Positions 1 to 34,298 of a stretch of 64,000 nucleotides of DNA are shown in pieces. This DNA is from Escherichia coli (GTDB taxonomy: Bacteria > Pseudomonadota > Gammaproteobacteria > Enterobacterales > Enterobacteriaceae), in NCBI RefSeq assembly GCF_002854065.1, contig NZ_CP024147.1. One strand, written 5' to 3'. Below the pieces are notes generated by a model. It was not told the origin of the DNA and did not search any database. It saw only the letters and a program-made list of their open reading frames with translations. The position numbers were made by a program, and so were the translations under genes. Each line of letters starts with the position of its first letter. Position 1 is the stretch's first letter.

Positions 1-126
1 AAGCAAAACTTCAGACACCTGACATATAAAAAATAATCTCGGTGTGAGATGCTTTACGTCTTCCAAGCCCCCTTCCTTGCCGTAAATGGAAAGATACATC
101 TAATTATAGAATTTATATGTTTTACC

Positions 127-702
127 CTACGGCAGTGCTGGCCATTCAATATCCTGTGCAGTTGACGTATCAACACGGTTCAGCAACACCCGATACTTTT
201 TCCAGGCTTCCAGCAATGAGGTTTCTTCCTCCGTTGCGATTTCCAGATCTACAGCATCCTGAAGTGGCGCAATATGCTCACTGGCTACCTGCATCAGGCT
301 GTTTTTTGTTTCTTCCGCCTCCCGGATCCGGAACAGTTTTTCTGCTTCTGCATCTTTCACCCAGGCTGTGCCGTTCCACTTCTGAAACTCCCCTTCCGGC
401 GATAACCAGGTAACATTTTCCGGTAACGGACCGAGTTCAGAAATAAATAACGCGTCCCCTGACGCTACGTCATAAACCGTTTTACCCCGATGGTCTTCAA
501 CGAGATGCCACGATGCCTCATCACTGTTGAAAACAGCCACAAAGCCAGCAGGAATATCTGGCGGTGCAATATCGGTACTGTTTGCTGGCAGACCTGTATG
601 AGGCGGAATATATGCATCACCTTCACCAATAAATTCATTAGTTCCGGCCAGCAGATTATAAATTTTTATGGTCCGTGGTTGTTCACTCATTCTGAATGCC
701 AT
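127..702 (-). CDS. phage tail fibre assembly protein (Tfa family)
   Basis: 191-aa ORF; recognised as lambdoid Tfa; sits immediately 3' of the tail-fibre fragment. Confidence 0.8.
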
Positions 703-1271
703 TATGCAAGCCTCACAATATAGTTAAATGCGATGTTTTTGACGGTGTTTTCCGCGTTACCAGCAGCGTTAACGGTGATGGTGTGTCCATGTGAACCAAT
801 CGCAACGGAGTGCGTATGAGCACCAATACCGACAGTATGTGCGTGTGCACCTGCGCTTGCAGCAGTGCCGGACAGTGAGTGGGTACTGGTATAATCCCAT
901 TGAATATTTACACCAGTCGCATAATTTCCGATTGCAACGTAAATATCGTAAGTATCACCAGATGTATTGACCCAGGCAAAATTTGTAAACCCTGCCGATG
1001 TGCGCTGCCATAAAGCACCAGTAATCCCCTTCGGATTACCATTACCTGCACGCAAAACAAGTTCAGATATACCTGCCTGTTGAGGTGAACCGACGTTATA
1101 TCCAGCCCCACCAATCAACGTAATTGAAACAACAGAACTCGCCTGCGGCATGGTTACCGTTGCTAATTTGAACCAACCAGCACCACCGCTGAATGACATT
1201 GTTGTTGAGTTAAGCGTACCAATATCTTTCGGTGTCAGTGTTATATCCGCTGAAAGCGCCTTACCATTCAC
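702..1271 (-). pseudogene. side tail fibre, C-terminal fragment only
   Basis: 189-aa open frame ending in the His-rich HxH tail-fibre tip motif; frame opens on GTG with no N-terminal body; lies directly after gene L. Confidence 0.6.
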
Positions 1272-1406
1272 CTTACGGGCAGAAGGTATTCACGCAGGGA
1301 AAATATCTTTCCCCCTCCGGTGTTCTCACCACGAAGCCGCACGACTCCGCTGGCGCACATCGCCGGGCGTGCGCCAGAATCGCTGATTCTGTCTCTGTCA
1401 TGGGAT

Positions 1407-2105
1407 TCACTGCGAAAGTTTGTTAATGGAAAGGAAGCCGCCAAAGTTGCCGACGTTATTGCGAAACTTACAGCCGCTCAGGCATTTGCTGCATTTATCC
1501 TTCGTGATATCGGACGTCGGCTGATCATATTCATCCGCGACCGCCGGACCGTGATAACCGCACTCATCACCGCGATAGGTCCAGGTGCAGGTGTTGGCCA
1601 GCATGATACGTCCCGGAAAAACGGCACCGTCCGTTTCCGTCGGCGTGGACAGTACAAAAGAGGCACTGACCGCGCTCAGTTCGCTGCACTGCTCGATGCG
1701 CCAGCGGCTGATCACCTCCTGCTCCGGATCGGCGTCACTGTTTCCGTTGACGAAGTTCACCGCATCCAGAAAACGGGCGTAAACCTTACGCCGGACCACC
1801 GTTCCTCCGACCAGACTCTGCAGGTCTTCCGCCATCCCGGTGACCATGCCGTGCAGGTTAGAAACCGTCAGTGTCGGACGGGCAGCACTGCCTTTGCCGT
1901 TCAGTTCAAATCCCGTCCCCTGAATGGGATACGCCTGATACTGTCGCCCCTGCCAGGTGACCGGCTCACCTTTATCGTTCTGCTCATTACAGAAAAAGTA
2001 GCGTTCCCCGCCTACCTCGGTCAGGTCGATTTCCCAGAGCACCACCTGGGCTGACTGAGTGAGGCGTGTCGTCTCATGATGTGTTTCCTGTGGAATATCC
2101 TGCAT
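1407..2105 (-). CDS. minor tail protein L (lambda gpL-like)
   Basis: 232-aa ORF closely matching lambda L as recalled (MQDI...CSKCLSGCKFRNN...INKLSQ). Confidence 0.85.
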   Translation of the reverse strand: MQDIPQETHHETTRLTQSAQVVLWEIDLTEVGGERYFFCNEQNDKGEPVTWQGRQYQAYPIQGTGFELNGKGSAARPTLTVSNLHGMVTGMAEDLQSLVGGTVVRRKVYARFLDAVNFVNGNSDADPEQEVISRWRIEQCSELSAVSASFVLSTPTETDGAVFPGRIMLANTCTWTYRGDECGYHGPAVADEYDQPTSDITKDKCSKCLSGCKFRNNVGNFGGFLSINKLSQ

Positions 2106-2114
2106 CAGAGACTC

Positions 2115-2444
2115 CTATGCCACGACCTGTTCAAAATCTGCCGTTATGGTTACCCACAACGCCCCCACGCTTGCCGACCATTTACGACAAACCACCCTGA
2201 TCGGCTTCCAGTCATAAGGTGGCGTCCACTGAAATGCGCGGACGCCACCGTGCCGTTCCAGAAAGGCTTTTAAAGATGGGTGTTCACATTTACGAACACG
2301 TATAGTCACGCTGTAAATCGACAACTGGTTATTCAGTCCCGCCGCACGACGCTGTTCATAACCATCGCCCAGCTTCACTGTCACCACTTTCGGCTCTGAT
2401 ACCACATTCATATCCGGGCGCACTTTCCAGTGAAACGTCTCCAT
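2115..2444 (-). CDS. minor tail protein M (lambda gpM-like)
   Basis: 109-aa ORF, lambda M-like, immediately upstream of L. Confidence 0.8.
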   Translation of the reverse strand: METFHWKVRPDMNVVSEPKVVTVKLGDGYEQRRAAGLNNQLSIYSVTIRVRKCEHPSLKAFLERHGGVRAFQWTPPYDWKPIRVVCRKWSASVGALWVTITADFEQVVA

Positions 2445-4648
2445 TACCGATATGCTCCACTTAACCGACCACCATCACGGGCCTGCTGTTGCATAAAGTC
2501 CGCTGCCGCTTTTTTCCCAAGGTCATAAACCACCTTCAGGGCAGCCGGACCTATCTGCCCGTTCGTGCCATCGTTATTGATCTCGATGTTGTACTGCGGG
2601 GCAAACATCGCCATACCTGAACCACCAATATCCGCCACAACCCCCAGCTTACCGTCAGCACCACGACGCAGTGGCAGAATGGCTTCAGGTCCAGCTTCCC
2701 CCATCACACCCGCGCCTTTTGCAAAAGCAAAAAACGTCGGACGGTTAACCACCGTGCCACTGTAACGACTCAAATCAGCAGACTGATAAATCCCCCCATT
2801 GGCATTCAGGGAAAGGCTGCTGAGATCAAATCCCAGTACACTGCCAATCCCTTTTATCGATTTCATCATGGTTGCCTGCGCCAGGATTTTCGCCATATCT
2901 GACAGCACCGAAGAGGTGAAGGATTTGAAGTTGAGTTTGCCGGTAGTGACAAAAGTTGCCAGGCCATTTCCCATGTTGCTGAAGGCTGATGAGAACACCT
3001 GTTCTGCTGTTCCTGCCGTATTGTCTGCATCCACGGTAAAATCCTGAAATGCACGCAGGACTCCGTTTTTCCAGTTACCCTGCACAACTTCAAGCTGTTG
3101 CCAGTAACGGCGATTCTCATTCAGTTGTCGGTTCAGGCTCTCCGTCAGCGCCTGCTCGGCCTTTCTGTAGTCATCCGTGTTATATGTCCCTTTCTGCTCA
3201 CTATCCCGCCTCAACTGCTCCAGCTGTTGCTGGTATTTCTGGCGAAGACTCAGTTGTACCTGATATCGCTGCCGCTGCTGATCACCCATACCCACCGTGG
3301 CGATATCCAGGTCATGTTGCTGACGCTGAGCGCGCTCTTCTTCAGCCAGTTGACTGGTCAGCTGAATTGTTTTTTTCTTCAGATCGTTGAGTGCCGTCTG
3401 TTTCTGAAGCTCCTGCTGTTTTACATCCAGCAGCGTCAGTGCCTGAATCAGTTCATCTTTACGGGCCAGCACACTCTTTTCATCTGCCGTCAGTTTTTTC
3501 CCGTCCAGATCGCTGATGCGCTGCTGCAGAGCCAGAAGCTGTTTATGCGCTTCTGTCATCTTTTCAGTGGCAATGCCTGCTGACTGTCTTGCAGCAGCAA
3601 TCTGTCCTTCCACCTGTGCCTGTTGCTGACTGTACTGCAGCAATAACCGGGTGGCCTCATCATTACGGGGTTCGCGTGTTTTTTTCTTACCGGATGCCAG
3701 GGCTTTCTCGTAACGTTCATTTTCACGTTGTATCGCCGCATCCCTGACAGCCTGATCGGCGTACTGCATGGCATTAATACGCGCAATTTCACGCTGATGT
3801 CGTGCTGCTTCCGTTTCATTCATCCGGTTCAGTGCAGCATTTTCAGCATTACGGCGTTTCTGTTGCTCCTGATAATTCCGCTCTGCCTGCTCTTTTGCAT
3901 CCTGCAAATCCTTCTGGCGTTTTTTCTCCTGAAGCTCGTTAAGACGCTGCTGATCGTACTCAACCTGAGAAGATGATGCCGTCCAGGGGAGTCTTTTCAC
4001 CCGCGACACTTTCTCCTGTAAAGCGGAAATCTGTTCATCCAGCGAGTCTTCACGACCAATATTCATGGCCGCATCCCAGAAACGACTCCATAAATCAGAC
4101 AGATACTTCAGCGTACTGCCCAGCGCATTGAGGTTATTATCAATATCCGCAGTACGCCGACCGGTTTCCTCTGCCAGTGCAGACATGGCTATCCGTGCCG
4201 CATCACTGGACCGCCCCTGTTCCCCAAGGACGCGTATCTGTTCAAGCTGAGTGGCAGTAAGAAAATGCAGCTCATTGTCCAGAGCCTTCGCGGCATTTAC
4301 AGGATCATCCTTCAGCCGCTTAAACTGATTTATGGTATCGCTGACCGACTGGCCAACCGATCGCTCCATCTGTGCGGCAGCTCTCGCCACCATACGGGAT
4401 GGATCATGAACAGAGTCTGCTGCCTCATGCTTCACACTAAACAGGGCTGGCCCGACATGGTGCAGGGCGTAAACGGGGTTCCCCCTGACAGTCGCAGCCA
4501 CAGGAGTGTTGGCCGCGAGGAGCCGTTTTTTTACTGTGTCCCGGTGAAGCCCAAAGGCCTCAGCGATTTTAAAAACACTCCAGTAATAAGCATCACCGAT
4601 CCCGCTCACATTTGACATAAGCAACTCCATCTGGCAGGTGAAAATCAT
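2444..4648 (-). CDS. tail tape-measure protein (lambda H-like C-terminal two thirds) with a divergent, possibly Nu1/small-terminase-derived N-terminus
   Basis: 734-aa ORF; C-terminus ...INNDGTNGQIGPAALK...RDGG resembles lambda H; N-terminal ~170 aa has an HTH-like segment; ATG at 4648. Confidence 0.65.
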   Translation of the reverse strand: MIFTCQMELLMSNVSGIGDAYYWSVFKIAEAFGLHRDTVKKRLLAANTPVAATVRGNPVYALHHVGPALFSVKHEAADSVHDPSRMVARAAAQMERSVGQSVSDTINQFKRLKDDPVNAAKALDNELHFLTATQLEQIRVLGEQGRSSDAARIAMSALAEETGRRTADIDNNLNALGSTLKYLSDLWSRFWDAAMNIGREDSLDEQISALQEKVSRVKRLPWTASSSQVEYDQQRLNELQEKKRQKDLQDAKEQAERNYQEQQKRRNAENAALNRMNETEAARHQREIARINAMQYADQAVRDAAIQRENERYEKALASGKKKTREPRNDEATRLLLQYSQQQAQVEGQIAAARQSAGIATEKMTEAHKQLLALQQRISDLDGKKLTADEKSVLARKDELIQALTLLDVKQQELQKQTALNDLKKKTIQLTSQLAEEERAQRQQHDLDIATVGMGDQQRQRYQVQLSLRQKYQQQLEQLRRDSEQKGTYNTDDYRKAEQALTESLNRQLNENRRYWQQLEVVQGNWKNGVLRAFQDFTVDADNTAGTAEQVFSSAFSNMGNGLATFVTTGKLNFKSFTSSVLSDMAKILAQATMMKSIKGIGSVLGFDLSSLSLNANGGIYQSADLSRYSGTVVNRPTFFAFAKGAGVMGEAGPEAILPLRRGADGKLGVVADIGGSGMAMFAPQYNIEINNDGTNGQIGPAALKVVYDLGKKAAADFMQQQARDGGRLSGAYR

Positions 4649-4798
4649 GTTTATTTATATATTTCAATTAATTGCAAACTGGTCTAATGACAGGGAGAAA
4701 AAAATATTGTACAGGTGAAAAGAGAAATAACTTTTAATTATCAATAAATTACCAAACATGCTGCCGCCGCCATGGAAATGCAAAAACTAGCCTTTTTC

Positions 4799-4818
4799 CG
4801 CGACGCTCCCGCCCCGTG
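4799..4818 (-). other. cos-like site (candidate cosN region)
   Basis: Minus strand reads ACGGGGCGGGAGCGTCGCGG, close to lambda cosN ACGGGGCGGCGACCTCGCGG as recalled; ~150 bp upstream of the ORF start at 4648, inside a GC-rich island. Confidence 0.4.
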
Positions 4819-4995
4819 GCAGGGGCCCCCACCGGGAGGACCCGACAGCCTGACAGCCGTGACGAGCATCTGATACAGCGCTTTACATAATGGCATAGGA
4901 ATAATTCAGAAGGACATCACAGCATGCCCACACAAATTAGTGTGAGTGTCCTGTTTCTTCCTACGCACAGGACTGACGAGCATGAGGGGAAAATA

Positions 4996-5163
4996 TGCGA
5001 ACCATAAATGCCTCATCTTCAGCAATGCAGCCGGCATCCGAACAGGACGATATTGTAAATTCACCTAATTACGAGGACATTGCAGTAGTTGAATTGCAGC
5101 TCTGTATTAGCCTGACAGTGACAGAATGCGATACTGACTCTGTCACAGGTGAAATAGTTTGAA
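4996..5163 (+). CDS. hypothetical small protein (55 aa)
   Basis: ATG preceded by GAGGGG at Shine-Dalgarno spacing; below the ORF-track cutoff; no recognised homology. Confidence 0.25.
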
Positions 5164-5182
5164 TGATTAGCAGTTATGGTGC

Positions 5183-5389
5183 TCAGTCAACCACCAGGGA
5201 ATAATCCTTCGAATTCTTATCGTGCTTCACCAACGCTGCCTCAATTGCCCTGAATGCTTCCAGAGACACCTGATGTTCTATACATGCAATTACAACATCC
5301 GGGTAACTCATAGAAATGGTGCTATTAAGCATATTTTTTACACGAATCAGATCCAACGAGAGTTCATCAGCAGATTGTTCTTTATTCAT
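5183..5389 (-). CDS. hypothetical prophage protein (68 aa)
   Basis: ATG start with GGAG Shine-Dalgarno 7 nt upstream; divergent from the DUF1398 gene. Confidence 0.5.
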
Positions 5390-5689
5390 TTTGTCGCTCC
5401 ATGCGTTTGCTCGTCATCTAGCGGTTAAAATATTACTTCAAATCTTTCTGCATAAAAGAGGAAAAGTATGAAAGTTTGAGTACATCGACCTTACATACAT
5501 CTGTCGGTTGCATATCCCTCCTGGATGCCAGCAAGGCTCAACTTTGTTACGCAATCAACACTATTCATTAAAAACAGGCTTAATATTTGACATAAATCAT
5601 CAACAAAACACAAAGAGGTCAGACCAGATTGAAACAATAAACACGATAATGCAAACTACGCGCCATCGTATCACATGGAAGGTTAACCA

Positions 5690-6100
5690 ATGGCTCAGGC
5701 TGCCATTTTTAAAGAAATATTCGATCAAGTGCGTAAAGATTTAAACTGTGAATTATTTTATTCTGAGCTAAAACGTCACAATGTCTCACTTTATATTTAC
5801 TATTTAGCCACAGATAATATTCACATTGTGTTAGAAAACGACAACATAGTGTTAGTAAAAGGACTCAAAAAGGTTGTAAATGTTAAATTCTCCAGAAACA
5901 AACATCTTATAGAGACCTCCTATAATAAGTTGAAATCAAAAGAAATCACATTTCAACAATACAGGGATAATCTTGCTAAAGCAGGAGTTTTCCGATGGGT
6001 TACAAATATCCAGGAACACCAAAGATATTACTATGCCTTTGATAACTCATTACTATTTACTGAAAGCATCCAGAAAACTACACAGATCTTACCACGCTAA
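5690..6100 (+). CDS. ydfO: DUF1398-family prophage protein (YdfO-like)
   Basis: 136-aa ORF, ATG with GGAAGG Shine-Dalgarno; position between the cos region and gnsB. Confidence 0.6.
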
Positions 6101-6251
6101 ACCATAACGTCCGGCTTCTCTCACTCCTGAGCCGGACTGCATTGGTTTAATAAAAACCATCAACAATTGTGATTTAGATATTCGGAACCATTCAAATATA
6201 ACAAAACCCCGTAAAAACGAGGTTTATGGATAAATTTTATTATTGAATACA

Positions 6252-6425
6252 TCAGATTAAATTAATCTTGACATCATAGCTTTCAAGACCCGTCATTTTT
6301 TCCCGTGCGGTAAACTGAATACTGGTAACTTCTTTCCCGGTCTTTTTCTTAAGTTCAATAATTTTTTTTGTTATATATTCAGAAATATCTGCTTCTGCTT
6401 TTGTTTTTAAGTCTTCAATATTCAT
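6252..6425 (-). CDS. gnsB: GnsB-family small protein (57 aa)
   Basis: Manual translation MNIEDLKTKAEADISEYITKKIIELKKKTGKEVTSIQFTAREKMTGLESYDVKINLI; missed by the ORF track because it is under 60 aa. Confidence 0.75.
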   Translation of the reverse strand: MNIEDLKTKAEADISEYITKKIIELKKKTGKEVTSIQFTAREKMTGLESYDVKINLI

Positions 6426-6596
6426 CATTTCCTCTTTTAGTCTGTTATGACTTTCCAGTTACACAGTAAATCGATTATATGGTGCAAACGTGTAAAAGAT
6501 AAGATGAAAAATCGCAATAATCAACATACGATAGTCTAAATTTTACACAAACAGACAAAGAGAATTTTCCTGAATTATCAATGCAATAGCATCAAA

Positions 6597-6752
6597 TCAA
6601 CTCAAGAGCCTTATTGCTGCTTCCAGAATTTCTTCTGAAGTAACATGTCGATCCGCGGCTACATAAATGACTTTATGATCTCCGGTCAGAGATGGAAACC
6701 CTGCGGCCATTACAGTAAGGTGTGTTTTTTCGCCATTTGGATATTCACGCAT
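6597..6752 (-). CDS. small prophage protein (51 aa; possibly YnfN-like)
   Basis: In-frame ATG giving MREYPNG...; longer alternatives start at 6827 (ATG) or 6869 (TTG); start uncertain. Confidence 0.4.
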   Translation of the reverse strand: MREYPNGEKTHLTVMAAGFPSLTGDHKVIYVAADRHVTSEEILEAAIRLLS

Positions 6753-6875
6753 GATGGTGTTAACTCCAGTCATCGCTGGCACTACCACTGCTGGTTCAGA
6801 GTTAAAAAAAACTATGATTTTTTTCATGATGTTACCGTAGTATGTGAGTATCCATCGAATAGACACCAAGCAAAA

Positions 6876-6900
6876 AAGCTCCCGAAGGAGCCTTCATTTT
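6876..6900 (-). terminator. rho-independent terminator-like hairpin
   Basis: Minus strand GCTCC-TTCG-GGAGC followed by TTTTTTGCTT. Confidence 0.45.
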
Positions 6901-7098
6901 CACTTTTTTAAATCCAACGACAGACGGCTGGCATTTAAGTATTGTGAAATATTATCAAATGTAATCATCATTGATTTACAAAAGATACATTTTGCCCCGA
7001 AAGGATTCATGTCAGAAACATCAAAAGATGATGTTCTATACTGGGAACCATGACAACACGGGCATCTAAAGTGAATATGGTTTGTAATATTGTCTACC

Positions 7099-7311
7099 TC
7101 AAAGCGCCACTACATGAACAGCGGCAGGACCTTTAGGTCCGTTCTCAATACCAAATTCAACTTCCTGATTCTCAGTTAATGTTTTGAAATCGTTGCTCTG
7201 AATTGCTGAGAAATGGACAAACACATCTTTGCTGCCATCTTTCGGCGTGATGAAACCAAAACCTTTTTCAGGGTTAAACCATTTCACTAAACCAGTCATT
7301 TTGTTAGACAT
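7099..7311 (-). CDS. cspI: cold shock protein CspI
   Basis: 70-aa CspA-family [26 protein letters not shown]... Confidence 0.9.
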
Positions 7312-7673
7312 AATTATTACCTTTTGAAGAAATTAGCCCTTGGGCAGAATGGTCCGAAAAAAAATATCAGAGAGAAAAACCAACAAGGAAATCCCAAGAG
7401 GTACAAATAATAAAATTATAACAATGACTGCTTCAGATAAATTTGTAACAAACCAGAACACCATTAACGCATGATTAACCACCCATAGCAAGGATTACTT
7501 TTGTAAAGAAAAACACAGCAATGAAAGAATAGCTTTATTTATTAATAAAACGTGTCATTCTGATTAAGACCTTTTATCTTACCCTTAAGATTTCAGGAAT
7601 TTTGGCTCATGGAAGAGTCCTTTTTATTTAAATTTTACATTCCGCGATGTAAATGTTCCGATTTAATATTACC

Positions 7674-8698
<1,025 letters not shown>

Positions 8699-8702
<4 letters not shown>

Positions 8703-9010
8703 AGATATTTATGATGAGGACGCTCGTGCTTATTGGCAGGATTTTCAATCTTAAAGGAGTACTGATGCTGCAGATAAGACTCAACTTTTTCTGACAATTT
8801 TTCTGCTACTTCCAGGAAGACTTGCCGGACGCTCCTTCTGGCTGCTGCCTCATAAAACTCCAGCGCAGCTCCTTCAACACGGTCCATGGCGACATCCAGG
8901 TCAAAAATTTCACCGTCAAAGCGTTCTTTGTCCTGTAAGGCTACAGTTACCGTAACTTTGTTCTCAAAATTACGGACTCCTTTCACAACCAGTTCATAGT
9001 CTTGAGTCAT
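8699..9010 (-). CDS. ydfR: prophage protein YdfR-like, located between holin and endolysin
   Basis: 103-aa ORF whose stop overlaps the endolysin start. Confidence 0.65.
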
Positions 9011-9014
9011 TGGA

Positions 9015-9230
9015 TTACTCTCCTCTCGCAGCCTTACGCCTGTCTTCTTTAATCTTGAAATAAAGATTTGTCAGATACGTCAGCAGGCCAAAAACCAGGC
9101 TACCCAGCACACCGATTGCAGCCCACTGTGACGGAGTTACTTTATCGAGTAACTGCAATGCCCAGAAACCAGCATTACCCGCCGATGTGCCATAGGCAAC
9201 ACCTGTTGTTAACTTATCCATTGATTTCAT
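9015..9230 (-). CDS. essQ: phage holin (S-like)
   Basis: 71 aa from [14 protein letters not shown]...; GAGG Shine-Dalgarno; ORF track shows a longer upstream extension. Confidence 0.8.
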
Positions 9231-9449
9231 ATCCTCACCCCGATGTACACGGATGGTGCAATATGTTTGAAAAGATCGGAGTCTACGGGGTAGTTTTGAC
9301 AGCACACGCTGTTCTCAACGGCGCTAAAGAAACATACACATTAAAAATGTGAGTAATTATTTTGAAAGAAAGTCATATATAAAATAATAATACGAGAAAT
9401 GTTTTCATATTTAGTGTACTGTATACGGCCATTTATACAGGAAAAGCCT

Positions 9450-9620
9450 ATGTCAGAACGTAAAGACTCAAAATCACGCCGTAATTATCTCGTTAAATGT
9501 TCCTGCCCAAACTGCACCCAAGAGTCAGAACACAGTTTTTCAAGAGTACAAAAAGGTGCCCTTTTGATCTGCCCTCATTGCAACAAAGTATTCCAGACAA
9601 ATCTTAAAGCTGCAGCCTGA
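9450..9620 (+). CDS. small zinc-ribbon protein (CxxC...CxxC), 56 aa
   Basis: ATG at 9450 with AGGAAA Shine-Dalgarno; cysteine pairs CPNC and CPHC; followed by a terminator. Confidence 0.5.
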   Translation: MSERKDSKSRRNYLVKCSCPNCTQESEHSFSRVQKGALLICPHCNKVFQTNLKAAA

Positions 9621-9680
9621 TTGATTTTATTAGTAACAAGTATTTTTTATATTTTAATAATATATTTAAAGTAGATAATA

Positions 9681-9702
9681 AAAAACCCGCCTGAGCGGGT
9701 TT
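9681..9702. terminator. bidirectional intrinsic terminator-like hairpin
   Basis: AAAAA-CCCGC-CTGA-GCGGG-TTT between convergent genes. Confidence 0.5.
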
Positions 9703-9983
9703 GAGATTGTGGTGCTTTTTGTGGGAGTCATCCACTTACGCACTTTGTTTTGCCATGCCAGCAGTTAGCTTCTGCTGTAAAACTATTCATGCCGCAAACC
9801 TGCACTTCACCACAATGGTTAGCATACTTTTCCTGATTAAGATTTTGCCAAATATGCTGGCCATTGTTTCATGTATTGGACCTCCTTAATTTTTATTAAA
9901 GAAATCCAATATTCACTACTCTGTCCGTATCTCTACTCAGGCATCAGCCTTCTTCGTTATCGTATACAGACGAGCGATGAATT

Positions 9984-10199
9984 TTAATCAGTAATGATGA
10001 CATTTGCTGCTGCAGGACCTTTAGCACCACTCTCTATAGAGAAGGTAACCTTTTGACCTTCAAATAAGGTTCGATAATTATCATTCTGAATCGCAGAAAA
10101 ATGCACAAACACATCTTTACTACCATCAACAGGAGAAATAAAGCCGAAACCTTTATCAGCGTTAAACCATTTTACTAAACCAGTCATTTTATTTGACAT
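9984..10199 (-). CDS. cspB: cold shock protein CspB
   Basis: 71-aa CspA-family [26 protein letters not shown]... Confidence 0.9.
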
Positions 10200-10509
10200 T
10201 CTACATTCCTTAACTTGAGCCTTTCGGCATAAATGGTTTGCATAACAGAAACGACTTCGTACTTAATTGGAGAGACTCAAAGAAGGAATAAGTGAATAAC
10301 ACCTGAAATGAGAACTGCTTTAGTAAACTACTTCGTATATCGTCTGTTCTTCAAACCGACGCAGTCATTAACTCATAGTTGAACATATGAAGCAATGTTT
10401 ATTTTAGACATCCAGCCACCTTCAACCCTATCAAAAAAGTAGTTTTCTCCAGGAACGTGTGTATGGTGCACCAGGTTATCAGTATTAAGGAGTTTTTCTG
10501 TCCCCTAAA

Positions 10510-10715
10510 ATGACAGGAATTGTCAAAAACTTTGACTACAAAAGCAGCAAAGGTCTTATATCCCCATCCGATGGCGTATCGATGCCCAGCTTCAGGTTTC
10601 AGCTCTCAATCTTCGAGATGCAGAAGAAATTACCACAGGATTACGCGTGGAATTTTGCCGGATAAATGGTTCGCGTGGACCTTCAACTCCCAATGTTTAT
10701 CCTGGGATGAGATTC
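10510..10715 (+). pseudogene. cspF: cspF-like cold shock gene, frameshifted
   Basis: [22 protein letters not shown] in frame 1; homology continues as [32 protein letters not shown] in the -1 frame; one base missing around 10573-10578; original stop lost. Confidence 0.65.
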
Positions 10716-10744
10716 AATATCTCTATTGCCCCATTTAAAGCACA

Positions 10745-10775
10745 AAAACCCGCTTATCAGCGGGTTTTCTACTTT
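10745..10775 (+). terminator. rho-independent terminator
   Basis: ACCCGCT-TATC-AGCGGGT followed by TTTTCTACTTTTTT. Confidence 0.55.
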
Positions 10776-10874
10776 TTTCTAAACGTCGGATACACAAAGC
10801 CCATCGTTGAGAAAATCTTATCCATGTTTTTTGAAAAATGCAAACATCATGTCGCCATCTTCAGCAAAAATCAT

Positions 10875-12508
<1,634 letters not shown>

Positions 12509-13039: not shown

Positions 13040-14059
13040 TTATTCAGAAAAAGTGAGTAAGACTTTGCAGCAATGTTTTTGATCCTGTTCAAATAAACTA
13101 ATGGCATCAGCAACATGCTGGAAATCAAACGTATGGGTAATTAATTTTTCTGGTTTAATTAACCCTTTACTTAACCAGTCGATAACGACCGGAAATTTAT
13201 TTGCATTTAAGCGTGAAGAGAAAATAGATAGTTCTTTTCCGGTAATTCCTTGCTGAATCACTTCAGAAGGTTCACTGGAGAAGCCCATCAATACAATACG
13301 TGCCGCTGGAGAAGCCAGCGTTACGGCCTCTTTCAGGATAGAAGGATGACAAGCCGCATCAATAATTAATGTCGGCTTTATGCCTTTTTCAGCGAAAATC
13401 TCGCCAAGCGGTGTCTGGCTGTTATTAATCACCCAGTCAGCCCCGCTCTCTTTCGCTTTTTCCAGTCGTTCATCAATGCGATCGGCAACAATCACATTTT
13501 TAACGTTATAGACGCCTTTTAATACCTGAACGATCGTCAGGCCGATTGGACCGGCACCGTAAACCAGAACGGTATCATTTTCAGTCGGTTGACCATGACC
13601 GGTTACGTTAGCCGCAATGGTAAAAGGTTCGATCATCACCGCATATTGATCGGCCACTGCTTCAGGAATTTTCCACGCATTTTTTGCCGGAACCACAGCA
13701 TATTCACTGAAACCACCGTCAGCGTGCACACCTAATACAGCGAGTGTCGTACAAACGTTCGGCTTACCTATAGAGCACGGATAGCAATGACCACAGCTGA
13801 CCACCGGATCGACAGCAACACGTTCACCGACTCTGGCGCTTTCCACACCTTCACCCACCACATCAATGACGCCAAAGAATTCATGTCCAATGACGCGCGG
13901 ATATTTCGCAAAAGGATTATGCCCACGATAAATATGGCTATCTGAACCACAAATTCCGGCAAGTTTCACTTTTACTCGTACTTCACCCGCTGACGGGGTG
14001 GGTATTTCACGTTCGACAATCGCCAGTTGATTCGGTTTTTCAATTAATATGCTTTTCAT
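13040..14059 (-). CDS. rspB: starvation-sensing protein RspB (Zn-dependent dehydrogenase)
   Basis: 339-aa ORF from MKSILIEK with AAGGAG Shine-Dalgarno; ORF-track start is extended. Confidence 0.9.
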   Translation of the reverse strand: MKSILIEKPNQLAIVEREIPTPSAGEVRVKVKLAGICGSDSHIYRGHNPFAKYPRVIGHEFFGVIDVVGEGVESARVGERVAVDPVVSCGHCYPCSIGKPNVCTTLAVLGVHADGGFSEYAVVPAKNAWKIPEAVADQYAVMIEPFTIAANVTGHGQPTENDTVLVYGAGPIGLTIVQVLKGVYNVKNVIVADRIDERLEKAKESGADWVINNSQTPLGEIFAEKGIKPTLIIDAACHPSILKEAVTLASPAARIVLMGFSSEPSEVIQQGITGKELSIFSSRLNANKFPVVIDWLSKGLIKPEKLITHTFDFQHVADAISLFEQDQKHCCKVLLTFSE

Positions 14060-14070
14060 TATCTTACTCC

Positions 14071-15285
14071 TTACCAGTTCCACAGCGTGCCATCTTCCAG
14101 ACGTGCGACTGGTAGATAAGCAGGTTCATAGGGATATTTCGCCGCCAGCTTTTCATCGAATTCGATGCCAAGACCCGGTTTGTCTCCCGGATGCATATAG
14201 CCGTTATCGAAAGTCCAGTTGTGCGGGAAGACTTCGAGCATTTGTTCGGAATAACCCATGTATTCCTGGACACCGAAATTGGGGACCCACAGATCAAAGT
14301 GCAGCGCTGCAGCCATGCAGACTGGTGACAAATCGGAAGGACCGTGTGAGCCAGTACGTACCTGATACAGCGAAGCAAAATCGGCAATCCGGCGCATACC
14401 GGTAATTCCGCCTGCATGGGTCAGCGTGGTGCGGATATAATCGATGAGTTGCTCTTCAATCAGTTGTTTGCAGTCCCAGATGCTGTTGAAGACTTCACCC
14501 ACTGCGATGGGTGTGACGGTATGTTGGCGAATGAGACGGAAGCATTCCTGGTTTTCCGCAGGCGTCGGGTCTTCCATCCAGAACATGCGATAATCTTCAA
14601 TGCTTTTACCAAAGCGCGCCGCTTCAATAGGCGTTAAGCGATGGTGCATGTCATGCAGCAAATGTTCATTAAAACCAAACTTGTTACGTACCGCGTCAAA
14701 CAATTTCGGCATGAAATCGAGGTATTTCTCCGTCGACCACAGCTGCTCTTCCGGCCACTGTCCTTTGGTTGCGGGTTCATAAGCCAGACCTTTACCTTTC
14801 GACATGCCGTAGGTGGTTTTCATACCAGGGATTCCGCACTGCACGCGGATGGCTTTGAATCCCAGCTCCTGATGACGGGCATAATCATCCAGAGCTTCAT
14901 CAATACTGTGACCGGTGGTATGGCAATAAACCATCACCCCTTCACGAGACGCGCCGCCGAGTAACTGGTAAAGCGGCATGTTGGCAGCTTTGGCTTTAAT
15001 ATCCCACAGCGCCATATCAACCGCTGAAATAGCCGACATCGTAACCGGACCGCGACGCCAGTAAGCACCTTTATAGAAAAACTGCCAGATATCTTCGATA
15101 CGGTGCGCATCGCGACCAATAAGCTGCGGACAAAGGTGATCCTGCAAATAAGAGGCCACGGAAAGCTCACGTCCATTGAGGGTGGCATCCCCAAGGCCCG
15201 TAATACCGTCCTCAGTGGTGATTTTTAATGTGACGAAATTACGCCCCGGACAGGTAACAAAAACTTCAGCCTTTACGATCTTCAT
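14071..15285 (-). CDS. rspA: starvation-sensing protein RspA (enolase-superfamily dehydratase)
   Basis: 404-aa ORF from MKIVKAEV. Confidence 0.9.
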
Positions 15286-15491
15286 GTTCGATTCCTTGCA
15301 TCGCTTGTCGTGATGCATGAAATCTACGCAACTGAGCTACTACCATACAAGTATGAGGATCAAAAAAAGCCGGAGTGATCACAAAAAAAAGGCGTATATT
15401 TTCGCCATGAATGGTTGACAAAAGATGAAATAGAGTACCTTTTATCAGCTGACGCTTCCTCGTATCTTATTGATAAAATAGATTTATGTCC

Positions 15492-15952: not shown

Positions 15953-16294
15953 ATGAAAATCACTCTCAGCAAACGAATCGGCCTGCTCGCTTTTCTGCTG
16001 CCTTGCGCACTGGCATTGAGCACAACTGTTCATGCCGAAACTAACAAACTGGTGATTGAGTCTGGCGACAGTGCACAAAGCCGCCAGCACGCCGCTATGG
16101 AAAAAGAGCAATGGAATGACACGCGCAATCTGCGCCAGAAAGTGAATAAACGCACTGAAAAAGAGTGGGATAAAGCCGACGCCGCTTTTGATAACCGCGA
16201 TAAATGTGAGCAAAGCGCCAACATCAATGCCTACTGGGAGCCAAATACTTTGCGCTGCCTGGACCGTCGAACTGGCCGCGTTATTACCCCCTAA
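15953..16294 (+). CDS. ynfB: UPF0482 protein YnfB (secreted)
   Basis: 113-aa ORF with signal peptide. Confidence 0.85.
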
Positions 16295-16328
16295 CCTGTT
16301 ATTGATTTAAGGAATGTAAGGACACGTT

Positions 16329-16889
16329 ATGCCAAGCGCCCACAGTGTTAAGCTACGCCCGCTGGAGCGTGAAGATTTACGCTATGTACATCAACTCGAC
16401 AATAACGCCAGTGTGATGCGTTACTGGTTTGAGGAACCCTACGAAGCCTTTGTTGAACTCTCTGATCTGTATGATAAGCATATTCACGATCAGAGCGAAC
16501 GACGCTTTGTGGTGGAATGTGACGGCGAAAAAGCCGGTCTGGTGGAGTTGGTGGAAATTAACCATGTACATCGCCGCGCAGAATTTCAGATAATTATCTC
16601 CCCGGAGTATCAGGGGAAAGGTCTGGCAACCCGTGCCGCCAAATTAGCAATGGACTATGGCTTCACCGTTCTCAATCTCTATAAGCTGTATCTGATCGTC
16701 GATAAAGAGAATGAAAAAGCGATTCACATTTACCGCAAGCTTGGCTTTACGGTTGAAGGTGAATTGATGCATGAGTTCTTTATTAATGGTCAATATCGTA
16801 ATGCTATTCGCATGTGTATATTCCAGCATCAGTATCTGGCAGAGCACAAAACACCGGGTCAGACTCTCCTGAAGCCGACCGCACAATAG
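16329..16889 (+). CDS. speG: spermidine N1-acetyltransferase
   Basis: 186-aa GNAT ORF. Confidence 0.9.
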
Positions 16890-16891
16890 CA

Positions 16892-17163
16892 TTAATAATA
16901 ATCGATCGTATTTTTGATGGTGTAAACCCGTTCGACGGCGGGTTTTACTCCTTCATCAACAATGATCAGCTGACAGTCCACTGGATTGGCGTGACTGTCA
17001 TATTCACAGCTCTGTTTTACATTACCAACCCGTTGATTGTTCAGTAAAGTAACCGCTGTGTAATCTAATTTTTTGATCGGATCCGTTGATGGCGTGGCGC
17101 TGACAGATAATGTTTTGTCGTTACTTTTCGTGGTTTTACCCAGCGGATACCCCTGATCATCAT
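16892..17163 (-). pseudogene. ynfC: ynfC lipoprotein gene, 3' portion (interrupted by IS2)
   Basis: Reading frame continues from 18495 across the IS: ...EYRYD|QGYPLGKTT... Confidence 0.8.
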
Positions 17164-17174
17164 TGGATTTGCCC

Positions 17175-18080
17175 CTATATTTCCAGACATCTGTTATCAC
17201 TTAACCCATTACAAGCCCGCTGCCGCAGATATTCCCGTGGCGAGCGATAACCCAGCGCACTATGCGGATGCCATTCGTTATAATGCTCGAACGCCTCTGC
17301 AAGGTTCTTTGCTGCCGTTAACCCGTCTGGTTTGGGCATGATACTGATGTAGTCACGCTTTATCGTTTTCACGAAGCTCTCTGCTATTCCGTTACTCTCC
17401 GGACTCCGCACCGCCGTGTTCTTCGGTTCAAGTCCCAACATCCGGGCGAACTGGCGTGTTTCATTAGCCCGGTAGCATGAACCATTATCCGTCAGCCACT
17501 CCACTGGAGACGACGGAAGATCGTTGCCGAAGCGGCGTTCCACCGCTCCCAGCATGACGTCCTGTACTGTTTCACTGTTGAAGCCGCCGGTAGTGACCGC
17601 CCAGTGCAGTGCCTCACGATCACAGCAGTCCAGCGCGAACGTGACACGCAGTCTCTCTCCGTTATCACAGCAGAACTCGAACCCGTCAGAGCACCATCGC
17701 TGATTGCTTTCTTTCACGGCCACTCTGCCTGTATGTGCCCGTTTCGATGGCGGTACAGCAGGTTTTCGCTCAAGCAACAGCGCATTCTGGCGCATGATCC
17801 GGTAAACACGTTTGGCATTGATCGCAGGCATACCATCAAGTTCTGCCTGTCTGCGAAGCAGCGCCCATACCCGACGATAACCATACGTGGGCAGCTCTCC
17901 GATAACATGGTGTATACGGAGAAGCACATCCGTATCATCAGTGTGACGACTGCGGCGGCCATCCATCCAGTCATCGGTTCGTCTGAGAATGACGTGCAAC
18001 TGCGCACGCGACACCCGGAGACAACGGCTGACTAAGCTTACTCCCCATCCCCGGGCAATAAGGGCGCGTGCGCTATCCAC
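17175..18080 (-). CDS. insD: IS2 transposase InsD (OrfB)
   Basis: 301-aa ORF. Confidence 0.9.
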
Positions 18081-18403
18081 TTTTTTGCCCGTCCATATTC
18101 AACGGCTTCTTTGAGGAGTTCATTTTCCATCGTTTTCTTGCCGAGCAGGCGCTGGAGTTCTTTAATCTGCTTCATGGCGGCAGCAAGTTCAGAGGCAGGA
18201 ACAACCTGTTCTCCGGCGGCGACAGCAGTAAGACTTCCTTCCTGGTATTGCTTACGCCAGAGAAATAACTGGCTGGCTGCTACACCATGTTGCCGGGCAA
18301 CGAGGGAGACCGTCATCCCCGGTTCAAAGCTCTGCTGAACAATTGCGATCTTTTCCTGTGTGGTACGCCGTCTGCGTTTCTCCGGCCCTAAGACATCAAT
18401 CAT
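18038..18403 (-). CDS. insC: IS2 transposase InsC (OrfA)
   Basis: 121 aa from [18 protein letters not shown]... Confidence 0.9.
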
Positions 18404-18494
18404 CTGTTCTCCAATGACTAGTCTAAAAACTAGTATTAAGACTATCACTTATTTAAGTGATATTGGTTGTCTGGAGATTCAGGGGGCCAGTCTA

Positions 18495-18974
18495 ATCATA
18501 GCGATATTCCATCTGCATCTGTTTGCTGCTGGCTTTAATCACGAAGCCATTATCATCGGTTTCCCAACTCACCCCGGCAGAAGGTAATTCTGCTAGCTGG
18601 CATTTTCCCTGTAAACGTACTCTCTTCTCCAGCGTCTCGGCATCACGGTAATAATTGGCGTCCAGTACCAGAGCGACCACGGTATTATTTTCCAGATCCA
18701 GTAATTCGAGTGAATCAAAACAGCCTTCTTCCGACAAAGTCCCCGAAACACGTTTCGTCACTTCACCTTGCTCATCCATTAATGTCTGAGTGAAATCTTT
18801 TACCGGACCACGCAGCGGATCAAAATCGAATTCATTAGAGAAACTGGCCATCTCAGGAGTAAATGAAAGTGTTACCTCTGTGCGGTCACATCCTGTGAGT
18901 AATATCGCGAGTAAGCATGGCAGTAATTTGTATTTCACATCAGTCACCAGAGAGTAGAGATGATTCTCAATCAT
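18495..18974 (-). pseudogene. ynfC: ynfC lipoprotein gene, 5' portion (interrupted by IS2)
   Basis: 160 codons with lipobox LLTGC; truncated by the IS2 end at 18494. Confidence 0.8.
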
Positions 18975-19045
18975 AGTAGCAAATACAGTACTTTACACGT
19001 TAAATGCTATGCTTAAAGAAGTTATCTTCGCGTAAGGAGCTTATG

Positions 19046-19351
19046 ATGAAACTCTCAACCTGCTGTGCCGCGCTTCTGCTCGCCCTCGCCTCACCCGCGG
19101 TACTCGCCGCGCCGGGATCCTGTGAGTGCATACAGAGCGATATATCACAGCGCATTATCAATAATGGCGTACCCGAAAGCAGCTTCACGTTAAGTATTGC
19201 ACCCAATGACCAGGTTGATCAGCCTGATTCCCAGGTCGTCGGGCATTGTGCTAATGATACGCATAAAATTCTCTACACCCGCACCACCAGCGGTAACGTC
19301 TCTGCTCCCGCGCAGTCTACCCAGGATGGCGCGCCTGCCGAACTGCAGTAA
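19046..19351 (+). CDS. ynfD: secreted protein YnfD (DUF1161)
   Basis: 101 aa from MKLSTCCAALLLALA; AAGGAG Shine-Dalgarno. Confidence 0.8.
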   Translation: MKLSTCCAALLLALASPAVLAAPGSCECIQSDISQRIINNGVPESSFTLSIAPNDQVDQPDSQVVGHCANDTHKILYTRTTSGNVSAPAQSTQDGAPAELQ

Positions 19352-19367
19352 TACATTATCGACTGAA

Positions 19368-19390
19368 CGCCGGATACGACGCATCCGGCG
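19368..19390. repeat. REP-like palindrome / terminator hairpin
   Basis: CGCCGGAT-ACGACGC-ATCCGGCG. Confidence 0.35.
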
Positions 19391-19548
19391 ATTTGAACAT
19401 ATAACATAACCCACCTTATTACTCATACCCTTCTATTGATATGGATTAATAATTCTTAACCCAAAATGGGTAGACCCCCTCTATTGTTAGCGCGCTAAAT
19501 ATTCAATATATAAACTTTTATATAACGATAAAGAACAGGGAGTGAGTT

Positions 19549-32431: not shown

Positions 32432-32854
32432 AAAATAAGTCCGGACTGCGGTAAATACCCGTCCGGACTTATTGCCTGCTCAAACCAACGTTAATAGCCA
32501 TCCTAAAATAGACGAAGCGCCAGCCAATTCCCGCAGCGCGTCTAGCGTCATCAGGATTATAAGTACCCAAATAAACGGATTCATTTTGCTGTGTGTCATT
32601 TATTACTGATGCGCAGTTATTCTACCGCTTTGTAAGTAGTAAAATAGTTAACCCGATCAAGACTACTATTATTGGTAGCTAAATTTCCCTTAAGTCACAA
32701 TACGTTATTATCAATGCTGTAATTTATTCAGCGTTTGTACATATCGTTACACGCTGAAACCAACCACTCACGGAAGTCTGCCATTCCCAGGGATATAGTT
32801 ATTTCAACGGCCCCGCAGTGGGGTTAAATGAAAAAACAAATTGAGGGTATGACA

Positions 32855-33163: not shown

Positions 33164-33255
33164 GTTTTCAACAGTAATGCTGGCGCGCCCCCTCGCGCCT
33201 GAAAATTACGGTGCTAAGCGGGTAACGTTTAGCACCGTCTTTAGCGGAGGGTAGT

Positions 33256-34260: not shown

Positions 34261-34298
34261 TGTTCAAACGCTGCCCGACAGCGCGGGCAGCGTCTTCA

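Follow-up and report, generated by a model that had tools for sequence, protein, structure and literature searches.

The 734-aa ORF at 4648..2444 (minus strand) of the window, the whole 64,000-nt stretch of Escherichia coli DNA analysed here, is a fusion of the 5' end of a small-terminase gene (terS) with the 3' part of a tape-measure gene, and the core idea of the initial annotation therefore holds. Very probably, an illegitimate deletion of 10,392 bp between two copies of the hexamer GTATGG produced this terS'::'tape-measure pseudogene in a decaying Qin-like prophage. We could demonstrate how the fusion is built, from which sequences it derives, exactly where they join and in which frame, and that cosQ and cosN are present upstream.

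Junction and deleted block

As a reference we used L004, the intact Qin-like prophage of E. coli 98206 (NZ_CP173544.1), with the gene order cos-terS-terL-portal-protease/capsid-...-G-T-TMP-M-L-K-I-J-lom-stf. Window positions 9000..4390 align with L004 16202..20811, and positions 4395..1287 with L004 31198..34305; identity is 99.5% left and 98.7% right of the junction. The two alignments overlap by exactly the six bases of GTATGG, a microhomology that occurs in both parental genes. With the alignment endpoints at 20811 and 31198 and this 6-bp overlap, 10,392 bp are missing relative to L004, a multiple of three. Aligning the window with both terS and the tape-measure gene places the deletion junction at 4390..4395 (minus strand). 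Here terS codon 76 is joined in frame to tape-measure codon 373, at ORF residue 86, and both breakpoints lie at codon phase 1 of their own gene. The in-frame deletion proposed at the outset is thus borne out by the endpoints in L004, the length of the missing block and the matching codon phase, and the comparison with an intact Qin-like prophage, also suggested then, yielded precisely this block, present in L004 and absent here.

The deletion took the rest of terS, terL, the portal, protease/capsid and head-tail joining genes, the tail tube gene, the genes for the G/T chaperones and the 5' third of the tape-measure gene. The assertion that the entire head module had been removed is right as far as the head goes, but the loss extends to the tail-shaft genes Z, U, tube, G and T. 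As stated in the same annotation, the ORF list of the window has no head or packaging gene between the cos motif and the ORF.

The same junction was found in one of 5,426 complete E. coli genomes, that of strain 100416, with 99.94% identity over 12 kb. PGAP annotates the stretch in that strain as a tape-measure pseudogene missing its N-terminus.

Composition of the ORF

The likely start of the ORF is ATG 4618, which leaves 724 codons. GGAG is found 6 nt before it, and intact homologues are annotated from this ATG; the open frame runs 10 codons further upstream, to ATG 4648. Profiles from PHROGs, NCBIfam and Pfam split the ORF at residue 84-88. In BLAST searches against complete E. coli genomes and phages the query breaks at nucleotide 806-811, with matches to position 1-425 of phages cdtI and Tritos on the left and to tape-measure genes of mEp460-like phages on the right. 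Residues 1-86 are the only part of the ORF that is foreign to a tape-measure protein, and they align with the N-terminus of no intact tape-measure protein. The HTH-like segment YWSVFKIAEAFGLHRDTVKKRL that had been singled out occupies ORF residues 22-43.

The tape-measure part (2444..4389, minus strand) is the 3' 64% of the gene, codons 373-1021 of 1021 with the stop included, and is 98.7% identical to L004 31198..33149. It scores 287.6 bits with TIGR01541 (tape_meas_lam_C; cut-off 104.75), matches Pfam TMP_2, TMP_4 and Tape_meas_lam_C, and aligns by BLASTP with residues 205-853 of lambda H (E = 9e-38), on the ORF side from residue 87. These matches confirm the lambda H-like character of the C-terminal part, while its extent has to be revised. 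The first ~170 aa had been described as unlike H, with a junction near residue 170; matches to Pfam TMP_2 and the PHROG tape-measure profiles begin at residue 84-85, that to lambda H at 87, and the true junction is at residue 86. The H-like share is consequently 88% of the ORF rather than two thirds, a fraction that does fit the C-terminal 64% retained from the full-length tape-measure protein. The complete lambda-type setting of a tape-measure gene is absent from the window, which lacks G, T, the tube gene, U and Z.

The small-terminase fragment

The terS fragment (4391..4618, minus strand) comprises codons 1-76 of 175 and encodes a modelled winged-HTH (wHTH) domain plus linker. ORF residues 6-88 match positions 4-81 of 183 in phrog_141, "terminase small subunit" (E = 1.1e-17), and residues 25-87 match Pfam DUF1441 (PF07278, E = 4.7e-07), a domain present in all 263 homologues. 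Compared with cdtI nucleotides 1-425, the terS side has a nucleotide identity of 98.4%. In intact relatives (L004, cdtI and L007), terS lies between cos and terL; the window itself has no terL. Judged by sequence, the gene is a DUF1441/PHROG-141 small terminase of the cdtI/mEp460/Gifsy type and not a homologue of Nu1/NohA. Membership in the Nu1 family was rejected, since BLASTP of intact TerS against lambda Nu1 gave E = 4.6 and 5.7 and Pfam reported DUF1441 only. The K-12 protein NohA is essentially lambda Nu1 and unrelated to the terS fragment of the window. The expression "Nu1-like gene" in the initial annotation was therefore apt for a small terminase downstream of cos, but not for its sequence family.

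An AF2 model of intact TerS (pLDDT 83) shows a wHTH at residues 7-60 with a strand-helix-helix-wing-helix arrangement; residues 61-69 form a linker and 78-99 a long helix. The best Foldseek matches to this model in the PDB are MerR-like wHTH proteins (RacA, BldC, MerR regulators) and 7lwr_A, an entry whose title names a viral DNA-packaging motor study, all with E of at least 0.08; a PDB sequence search with TerS gave chance matches only. TerS would accordingly resemble Nu1 only in position, in role and in the MerR-like winged-HTH fold of the model. The 76 retained residues correspond to the whole modelled DNA-binding domain and end just before the oligomerisation helix. Helices 78-166 of the model (oligomerisation and C-terminal) are deleted, so that a full-length DUF1441 protein is no longer encoded.

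The cos site upstream

A cos-like motif differing from lambda cosN at a few positions had been reported about 150 bp upstream of the ORF, and on sequence grounds it is a real cos core. The 20-mer ACGGGGCGGGAGCGTCGCGG lies at 4818..4799 on the same strand as the ORF, its 3' end 151 bp upstream of the first ATG, and is identical to the lambda cos junction ACGGGGCGGCGACCTCGCGG at 16/20 positions. It contains the cosN cohesive-end sequence GGGCGGGAGCGT (4803..4814, minus strand), which agrees with lambda GGGCGGCGACCT at 8/12 positions. Positions 1-6 are identical, differences are confined to positions 7, 8, 9 and 11, and the ACG before and the CGCGG after the cohesive end are conserved. A heptamer GGGTCCT at 4837..4843 (minus strand) is the same as the one 23 nt before the lambda genome end, which we take to be lambda cosQ; here it is 22 nt upstream of the top-strand nick position, compared with 23 nt in lambda. 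Phages cdtI and Tritos have genome records that start exactly at window position 4814, the first G of GGGCGGGAGCGT, and the block cosQ...ACGGGGCGG...CGCGG is invariant in a 6-phage alignment with lambda, mEp213, VT1-Sakai, mEp460 and a Klebsiella phage. Because phage records start at this point, cosQ is suitably spaced and the block is invariant, the motif is more than a GC-rich string. Two elements of a lambda-like cos were found, namely a cosN recognizable by its 12-bp identity, its conserved left half and CG at both nicks, and a cosQ at ~20 nt. Positions 4799-4818 thus do match known cos sites.

Between cosN and the terS start lies a 184-bp spacer (4619..4802, minus strand), putatively cosB by position only, whose identity with the first 196 bp of cdtI and Tritos is 98-99%. 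A repeat search of 4380-4900 identified no terminase-binding repeats, only short two-copy matches at chance level.

The site shares with lambda cos, as described by Feiss and co-workers (PMC4669245), the 12-nt end, its left half GGGCGG, CG at both nicks and cosQ, an element highly conserved in lambda-like phages. It differs in the four changes in cosN, in the position of cosQ (1 nt closer here), in a cosB region unrelated to the R3-I1-R2-R1 arrangement of lambda, and in the matching TerS, which is of a different sequence family. All four changes are located in the naturally variable right half of cosN, where natural variation is a pattern of positions 7-12, for example in N15 and Gifsy-1 (PMC4669245). 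The cos appears to remain a suitable substrate for a terminase from a cdtI/mEp460-type phage.

The remaining prophage

The window holds the right-hand remnant of a Qin-like lambdoid prophage at ydfJ, with its late operon on the minus strand. Following the ORF, the genes for minor tail proteins M (2115..2444, minus strand, 109 aa, colinear with L004 33149..33478) and L (1407..2105, minus strand, 232 aa) are intact; in strain 100416 they are annotated as phage tail protein and "phage minor tail protein L", respectively. Of tail gene K only a 5' fragment is left (1288..1401, minus strand; incomplete with missing C-terminus according to PGAP), which forms the left side of a second deletion. The L004 alignment ends at 34305, 115 bp into K, and matches to phage K genes stop at window position 1287/1284. 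Joined to it is a 3' fragment of the side-tail-fibre gene stf (702..1287, minus strand, from ORF 702..1271 and PGAP), followed by tfaQ (127..702). Positions 885..1 are 97.4% identical to K-12 stfQ/tfaQ, and positions ~1211..884 match stf of phage JL22.

On the other side, a 3' remnant of the late antiterminator gene Q (10875..11255, minus strand; N-terminus missing according to PGAP in 100416) is cut off by an IS3-family element. The element, one end of which starts at 11259, has an IS911-like terminal repeat at 11259..11285 and an IS3 transposase at 11462..12505 (NF033516, E = 5e-91), and chromosomal rspB/rspA homologues follow directly. At least three deletions would have shrunk the prophage: the one joining terS' to the tape-measure gene, one associated with IS3 that took the entire left arm, and the one behind the K'::'stf fusion. 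No integrase, replication, primase or excision genes were found in the remnant. A cos-bearing PICI-like satellite was considered and rejected, given the lack of int, rep and primase genes and a left arm replaced by an IS3-family element that abuts the rspB homologue. A scan for a promoter of the ORF's own gave one weak match, fewer than in shuffled sequence.

Recurrent junctions in terS

The breakpoint falls in a stretch of ~12 bp of terS, ATCCATCCCGTATGGAGC, at which we observed 11 different deletion junctions and four IS insertions in other genomes; the junctions were drawn from a sample of short database ORFs. One end of these junctions is fixed, the distal endpoint varies (0.6 to about 22 kb), and the joints show short microhomologies. 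Other genomes (L019/L020 and L031) carry IS911-like elements immediately after GTATGGAGC, inserted in either orientation, with a target duplication AGC 3 nt right of GTATGG, and ends of IS66-family elements also adjoin the stretch (L017, L021). The IS1 of strain J31 (hit H17) sits upstream of terS and was not accepted as a hotspot insertion. Among 787 complete genomes, terS is intact across the stretch in 737 and partial in 50; the four partial cases listed have match edges at query nucleotides 282, 174, 372 (match start) and 63, none of them at the hotspot. Scans of IMG/VR and metagenomes revealed no further junctions in the form of a non-wild-type continuation after CCCGTA/CCCGTAT.

None of the causes that we examined is proven. 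A 5-bp hairpin, TCCAT[CCCGT]ATGGA, is predicted at the hotspot; DNA secondary structure was rejected as its cause, since the sequence is no more structured than shuffles (z = -0.06 and +0.28). A protecting Chi site was discarded as well, the nearest Chi being at 8277. The aligned partner sites share C-G-N-TA-T, with a flank information of 6.9 bits against a null of 4.7 +/- 0.7. We do not claim a recombinase recognition motif, because imperfect base-pairing with the hotspot sequence CCCGTAT explains this pattern equally well. To our knowledge the sites are unlike the consensus of the Pin invertase, lambda Int, Xer/dif, integron and restriction-site models, and these models were dropped. It is possible, if on balance doubtful, that ATCCATCCCGTATGGAGC of the DUF1441 terS is a true hotspot of DNA breakage or transposition, which repeatedly seeds one-sided deletions of morphogenesis genes and leaves cos and the DNA-binding domain of TerS behind.

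Origin and nature of the fusion

The deletion would be of the illegitimate, RecA-independent type, between two GTATGG copies 10,392 bp apart in terS codons 75-77 and tape-measure codons 371-373. Everything between the copies would have been removed and the reading frame kept by chance; the odds of keeping it are about one in three, which agrees with chance without proving it. The predicted product combines the cos-binding winged-HTH of TerS with a tape-measure protein devoid of its N-terminal 372 residues. Most likely, the ORF is an inert, non-functional pseudogene, because TerL, the capsid, the tail tube, the G/T chaperones, I, J and most of K are gone, Q, on which late transcription depends, is truncated and a convincing own promoter is absent before the ORF. 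Against inertness, no stop interrupts the 734 codons of the frame, and a single residue separates it from that of strain 100416, so that expression of a fusion protein is possible. The uninterrupted frame is also what one would expect of a native multi-domain tape-measure protein, or of a junction created in assembly without any deletion. We consider either extremely improbable, as each half is 98-99% identical in nucleotide sequence to a gene of its own, the two genes being separated by 10.4 kb in intact prophages and phages, the first 372 residues of the intact tape-measure protein are different, and the identical junction is present in the independently assembled complete chromosome of 100416. 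The fusion, or the cos together with the TerS DNA-binding domain, might instead have been kept as something useful, either a decoy that binds or titrates the packaging machinery of incoming cdtI/mEp460-type phages or a cos through which a helper phage packages the neighbouring DNA. In favour of this, both cosQ and cosN are preserved, with 98-99% identity to functional phages, the 76 residues span the whole modelled DNA-binding domain, and N-terminal TerS fragments are kept in many genomes. Such a use is nevertheless quite unlikely: the junction occurs in just that one complete genome, and many fusions at the hotspot are not in frame or continue into the end of an IS, which gives no sign of selection for a product. 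The truncated Q, the lack of an own promoter, the missing integrase, replication and excision functions and the absence of a second cos within packaging distance in the window speak against it as well.

A further alternative concerns how the deletion arose and not what the feature is. Since the breakpoint lies in a recurrent hotspot, the deletion may stem from a specific lesion, for example IS transposase activity, rather than from random slippage. An IS911-like IS3-family element could have inserted immediately after GTATGGAGC in terS and been excised in a transposase-dependent manner with the flanking 10.4 kb, the donor ends being sealed at the nearest microhomology, GTATGG; an IS-excision enhancer (IEE) with microhomology end-joining possibly helped. 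Such a course would explain the fixed end and the variable other end of the 11 junctions, and it is in keeping with the IS911-like elements at this exact nucleotide in both orientations, the abutting IS66-family ends and the IS911-like IS3-family element that truncates Q in the same prophage. Deletions by IEE and IS3-family transposases likewise have a fixed endpoint by an IS3-family site, variable distal ends and short microhomologies. However, no IS or IS scar is left at the junction in the window, and the microhomologies do not consist of the bases immediately adjoining the IS boundary. TA or TAT serves as the joint in most hotspot junctions, at a distance of 6-7 nt from the IS911 boundary, and the GGAGC beside that boundary in none. 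We regard this route as a tentative proposal, with a plain illegitimate deletion between the GTATGG copies as the preferred account of the pseudogene.

Comparison with known prophages and phages

The closest chromosomal counterpart is the nohA-stfQ region of K-12 Qin. It occupies the same locus, ydfJ, and is 97% identical to window positions 5612..11258 and 1..885; it has decayed in the same manner, in that its small-terminase gene, beside a retained cos, runs straight into a tail-fibre gene and the head genes are all lost. Qin differs in having a cos identical to that of lambda and NohA, a Nu1 homologue that overlaps stfQ and follows the sequence of lambda Nu1 except in the last ~13 residues. 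The window, in contrast, carries a cdtI/mEp460-type cos and 76 DUF1441 terS codons joined to a tape-measure gene, and still keeps M, L and the K fragment; positions 886..5611 have no counterpart in K-12. Parental-type sequences are found in the 98206 prophage and in phages cdtI, Tritos, mEp460 and Ayreon. The cos-terS region of cdtI and Tritos is 98.4-98.8% identical to the window, and the tape-measure segment of mEp460 and Ayreon at the junction 99.3-99.7%. Unlike the window, the 98206 prophage and these phages keep the complete 10.4-kb block of packaging, head and tail-shaft genes.

Implications

Taken alone, the ORF is an ordinary, textbook case of prophage decay. For annotation, it should be read as a terS'::'tape-measure pseudogene with a retained cos, rather than as a tape-measure gene whose N-terminus is unusual. 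This chromosomal cos is 98-99% identical to that of live cdtI/mEp460-type phages, so the terminase of a superinfecting phage could still cut it. The breakpoint falls on a hotspot, defined at the scale of nucleotides, where deletions and IS insertions recur within the DUF1441 terS family. If the hotspot is a true one, a specific lesion or enzyme, and not random decay, would drive the stereotyped disabling of a widespread E. coli prophage family, and a specific cause would offer general insight into how lambdoid prophages become disabled.

A fusion gene left by an in-frame deletion

The fusion is real, and the explanation offered in the initial annotation, an in-frame deletion, is essentially correct. 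Three corrections concern the position of the junction, the family of the terminase fragment and the extent of the loss. The 734-aa ORF is present on the minus strand (4648..2444), and profile searches (PHROG, Pfam, TIGR01541) divide it cleanly in two. Residues 6-88 match the terminase small subunit (PHROG 141, E = 1.1e-17) and residues 25-87 match DUF1441 in Pfam. The rest of the ORF, beginning at residue 84-85, matches tape-measure profiles (PHROG 24 and 20739; Pfam TMP_2, TMP_4 and Tape_meas_lam_C), among them TIGR01541 with a score of 287.6 bits (cut-off 104.75). In BLASTP, residues 87-734 align with lambda H residues 205-853 (E = 9e-38), and no alignment to lambda H was found before residue 87. 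The first ~170 aa had been taken as unlike H; the profile, BLASTP and nucleotide alignments place the junction at residue 86. ATG 4618 is likely the terS start: a GGAG precedes it by 6 nt, and intact homologues are annotated from this codon. The first ATG of the fusion ORF lies 10 codons further upstream.

The parental arrangement is seen in an apparently intact Qin-like prophage of E. coli 98206 (L004, NZ_CP173544.1), which has the full gene order cos-terS-terL-W-like-portal-protease/capsid-decoration-...-Z-U-tube-G-T-TMP-M-L-K-I-J-lom-stf. Its positions 16202..20811 align with window 9000..4390 (99.5% identity) and positions 31198..34305 with window 4395..1287 (98.7%). The two alignments overlap by 6 bases, GTATGG, which are found in both parental genes. 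These endpoints and the overlap define a deletion of 10,392 bp. Since this length is divisible by 3 and both breakpoints are in codon phase 1, the reading frame passes from terS codon 76 (...HDPSRM) straight to tape-measure codon 373 (VARAAAQ...). The comparison with L004 thus agrees with the proposed joining of a small-terminase 5' end to the 3' part of a tape-measure gene. The entire head module had been thought removed, and it is indeed gone, together with the tail-shaft genes.

A 1.1-kb query across the region was compared with 5,426 complete E. coli genomes. It was covered completely (100%) in one of them, strain 100416, while in all other matching genomes the alignment ended at query position 811-820. 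In a phage search, the left part (query 387-811) matched positions 1-425 of cdtI and Tritos with 98.4-98.8% identity, and the right part (806-1101) matched the interior of the tape-measure gene of mEp460, Ayreon and relatives with 99% identity. Strain 100416 is 99.94% identical to the window across 12 kb, and PGAP annotates the same stretch there as a tape-measure pseudogene 'missing N-terminus'.

Because Q is truncated and no convincing promoter was found upstream of the fusion ORF, the ORF is presumably silent or nearly so. A role in packaging or tail assembly is excluded, since the terL, capsid, tube and chaperone genes are absent.

Terminase fragment and cos site

The N-terminal part had been described as Nu1-like. 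It is so by position, because the gene lies between cos and terL in intact relatives, but not by sequence: BLASTP between lambda Nu1 and TerS was not significant, and Pfam assigns this part to DUF1441 only. PHROGs labels the family small terminase. A sequence search found no solved structure for TerS. In an AlphaFold model (35-sequence alignment as input, mean pLDDT 83), a strand-helix-helix-wing-helix unit is predicted at residues 7-60, followed by a poorly ordered linker (61-69) and long helices from residue 78 on. The best PDB matches in Foldseek were MerR-like winged-HTH domains, only at E >= 0.08, one match in this range being an entry whose title refers to a study of a viral DNA-packaging motor. 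A MerR-like winged-HTH fold is therefore no more than suggested for the TerS N-terminus. On this model, the deletion would retain the whole DNA-binding domain and drop the oligomerisation and C-terminal parts.

The cos-like 20-mer reported upstream is present (4818..4799) and ends 151 bp short of the ORF; 16 of its 20 bases agree with the lambda cos junction. Window 4814, where GGGCGGGAGCGT begins, corresponds to the start of the cdtI and Tritos genome records. Compared with lambda GGGCGGCGACCT, positions 1-6 are identical and positions 7, 8, 9 and 11 differ, with the CG steps retained at both nick positions of cosN. This is exactly the pattern of natural cosN variants (N15 differs at positions 9 and 12, Gifsy-1 at 8, 9 and 11) described by Feiss and co-workers, who also report the 7-bp cosQ to be highly conserved (PMC4669245). 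A cosQ-like heptamer, GGGTCCT (4843..4837), precedes the nick by 22 nt, compared with 23 nt in lambda. The blocks GGGTCC, ACGGGGCGG and CGCGG do not vary across the aligned sites of the window, lambda, mEp213, VT1-Sakai, mEp460 and a Klebsiella phage. The 184-bp spacer between cosN and terS probably holds cosB, judging from its position and 98-99% identity to live phages; the assignment is tentative, since a repeat search identified no terminase-binding repeats in the spacer.

A recurrent breakpoint in terS

Database proteins that start with the TerS N-terminus very often depart from it at ...HDPSR(M), which is also the codon of the window junction, and continue into different sequences. DNA was recovered for most of them and mapped onto the intact reference (loci L009-L017, L019-L023 and L031), in a sample biased to fusions yielding short ORFs. 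Eleven different deletions have the common left end ...GATCCATCCCGTA(T)(GG) (...CCATCCCGTA(T)(GG)), at window 4385-4402 (terS codons 73-78), and their right ends range from terL to stf. Mapping on DNA places right ends in TerL, the prohead protease, the C-terminus of the capsid, the tape measure (the window), L, J (two cases) and stf (L012 and L022); two more, in J (database protein P0096) and stf (P0103), were deduced from protein sequence alone. On the reference, the measured deletions range from 0.58 to 15.5 kb, and those that reach stf are longer. The overlaps are 2-6 bp, with TA in every one. Four IS insertions fall inside the same 12 bp: IS911-like elements at the identical nucleotide in both orientations (target duplication AGC), and two IS66-family elements, one with the 8-bp duplication ATCCATCC. 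These cases are not one lineage, as some of the prophages carry different upstream lysis genes. Other left endpoints in terS (codons 46, 49/50, 62-64, 73, 85 and 119) account for at most four cases each. In complete genomes, 737 of 787 terS copies are intact across the site, and four partial terS cases among the matches listed end elsewhere.

The 6-bp overlap and the absence of longer homology indicate that the window deletion arose by microhomology-mediated illegitimate recombination between the GTATGG copies, which may have come about through slippage during replication, through end joining or through an event set off by a transposase. Partner sites of the hotspot have an extra, imperfect similarity to it, C-G-N-TA-T, which we read as base-pairing with a recurrent DNA end and not as a protein recognition motif. 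A plausible cause of the hotspot is excision of an IS3-family element with flanking deletion, a documented process with fixed-end deletions sealed at microhomologies (PMC9943667), since IS911-like elements hit exactly this site and one sits in the window's own prophage. However, the window junction has no IS scar, and the bases adjoining the IS boundary are not those that served as microhomologies.

Neither a hairpin nor a Chi site was retained as the cause: the small hairpin predicted at the hotspot is not exceptional, and no Chi lies near the hotspot or junction. The whole window has seven copies of Chi (GCTGGTGG) against 1.9 expected from shuffles, an enrichment that is usual in E. coli chromosomal DNA.

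An identical stf point, GAGT|TATACGAGG, is found in L008 (E. coli STEC308, 9085-9095) and L022 (4187-4195) with two different left ends, terL ...GCTCCCGTAT and terS ...CATCCCGTAT. As terS and terL both contain the 8-mer TCCCGTAT, a further deletion between these 8-bp repeats could have turned one arrangement into the other. A J-gene position near L004 38445 (GCGGATATCAGTGG) is the right endpoint of two independent deletions (L010 3883-3888, L011 1965), one starting at the terS hotspot and the other, with a 6-bp overlap (TATCAG), at the protease gene.

Decay of the surrounding prophage

The remnant is located at ydfJ. It has the lysis, csp and gnsB backbone in common with K-12 Qin (L018), and the flanking backbone is 97% identical. 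K-12 Qin has a lambda-identical cos, the Nu1 homologue NohA and ynfO, whereas in the window the cos is of cdtI type, terS belongs to DUF1441 and a hypothetical gene of 68 aa (5183..5389) is present. Window 886..5611 has no counterpart in K-12 and represents a module swap inside 'Qin'.

At least two additional losses accompany the terS/tape-measure deletion. At window 10875-12508, an IS3-family element of IS911-like type, with its end at 11259 and its transposase at 11462..12505, truncates the gene for the late antiterminator Q. Chromosomal homologues of rspB/rspA (13043..15318) follow this element directly, which means that none of the prophage's early/left arm is left. Strain 100416 differs here, having a group II intron and ISEc31 without rspAB. 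At window 1284-1290, tail gene K breaks off after 115 bp and is joined to the 3' part of a side-tail-fibre gene; this deletion took the remainder of K along with I, J, lom and the 5' part of stf. About 75 nt past this joint (1284..1211) had no match in the phage collection.

Smaller lesions were also seen. The Rz-like spanin gene rzpQ (7674-8172) is split into ORFs of 123 aa and 51 aa and is marked frameshifted by PGAP in strain 100416. Near window 10700 (cspF region) the alignment with the intact prophage breaks, skipping ~259 bp of L004 (14241 to 14497); cspF of strain 100416 is annotated as a frameshifted and truncated pseudogene.

With nohA-stfQ of K-12 Qin as a parallel case, the window represents deletion decay of a lambdoid prophage, which is of a very familiar kind. 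It is the recurrent breakpoint in terS that adds modest interest beyond such decay.
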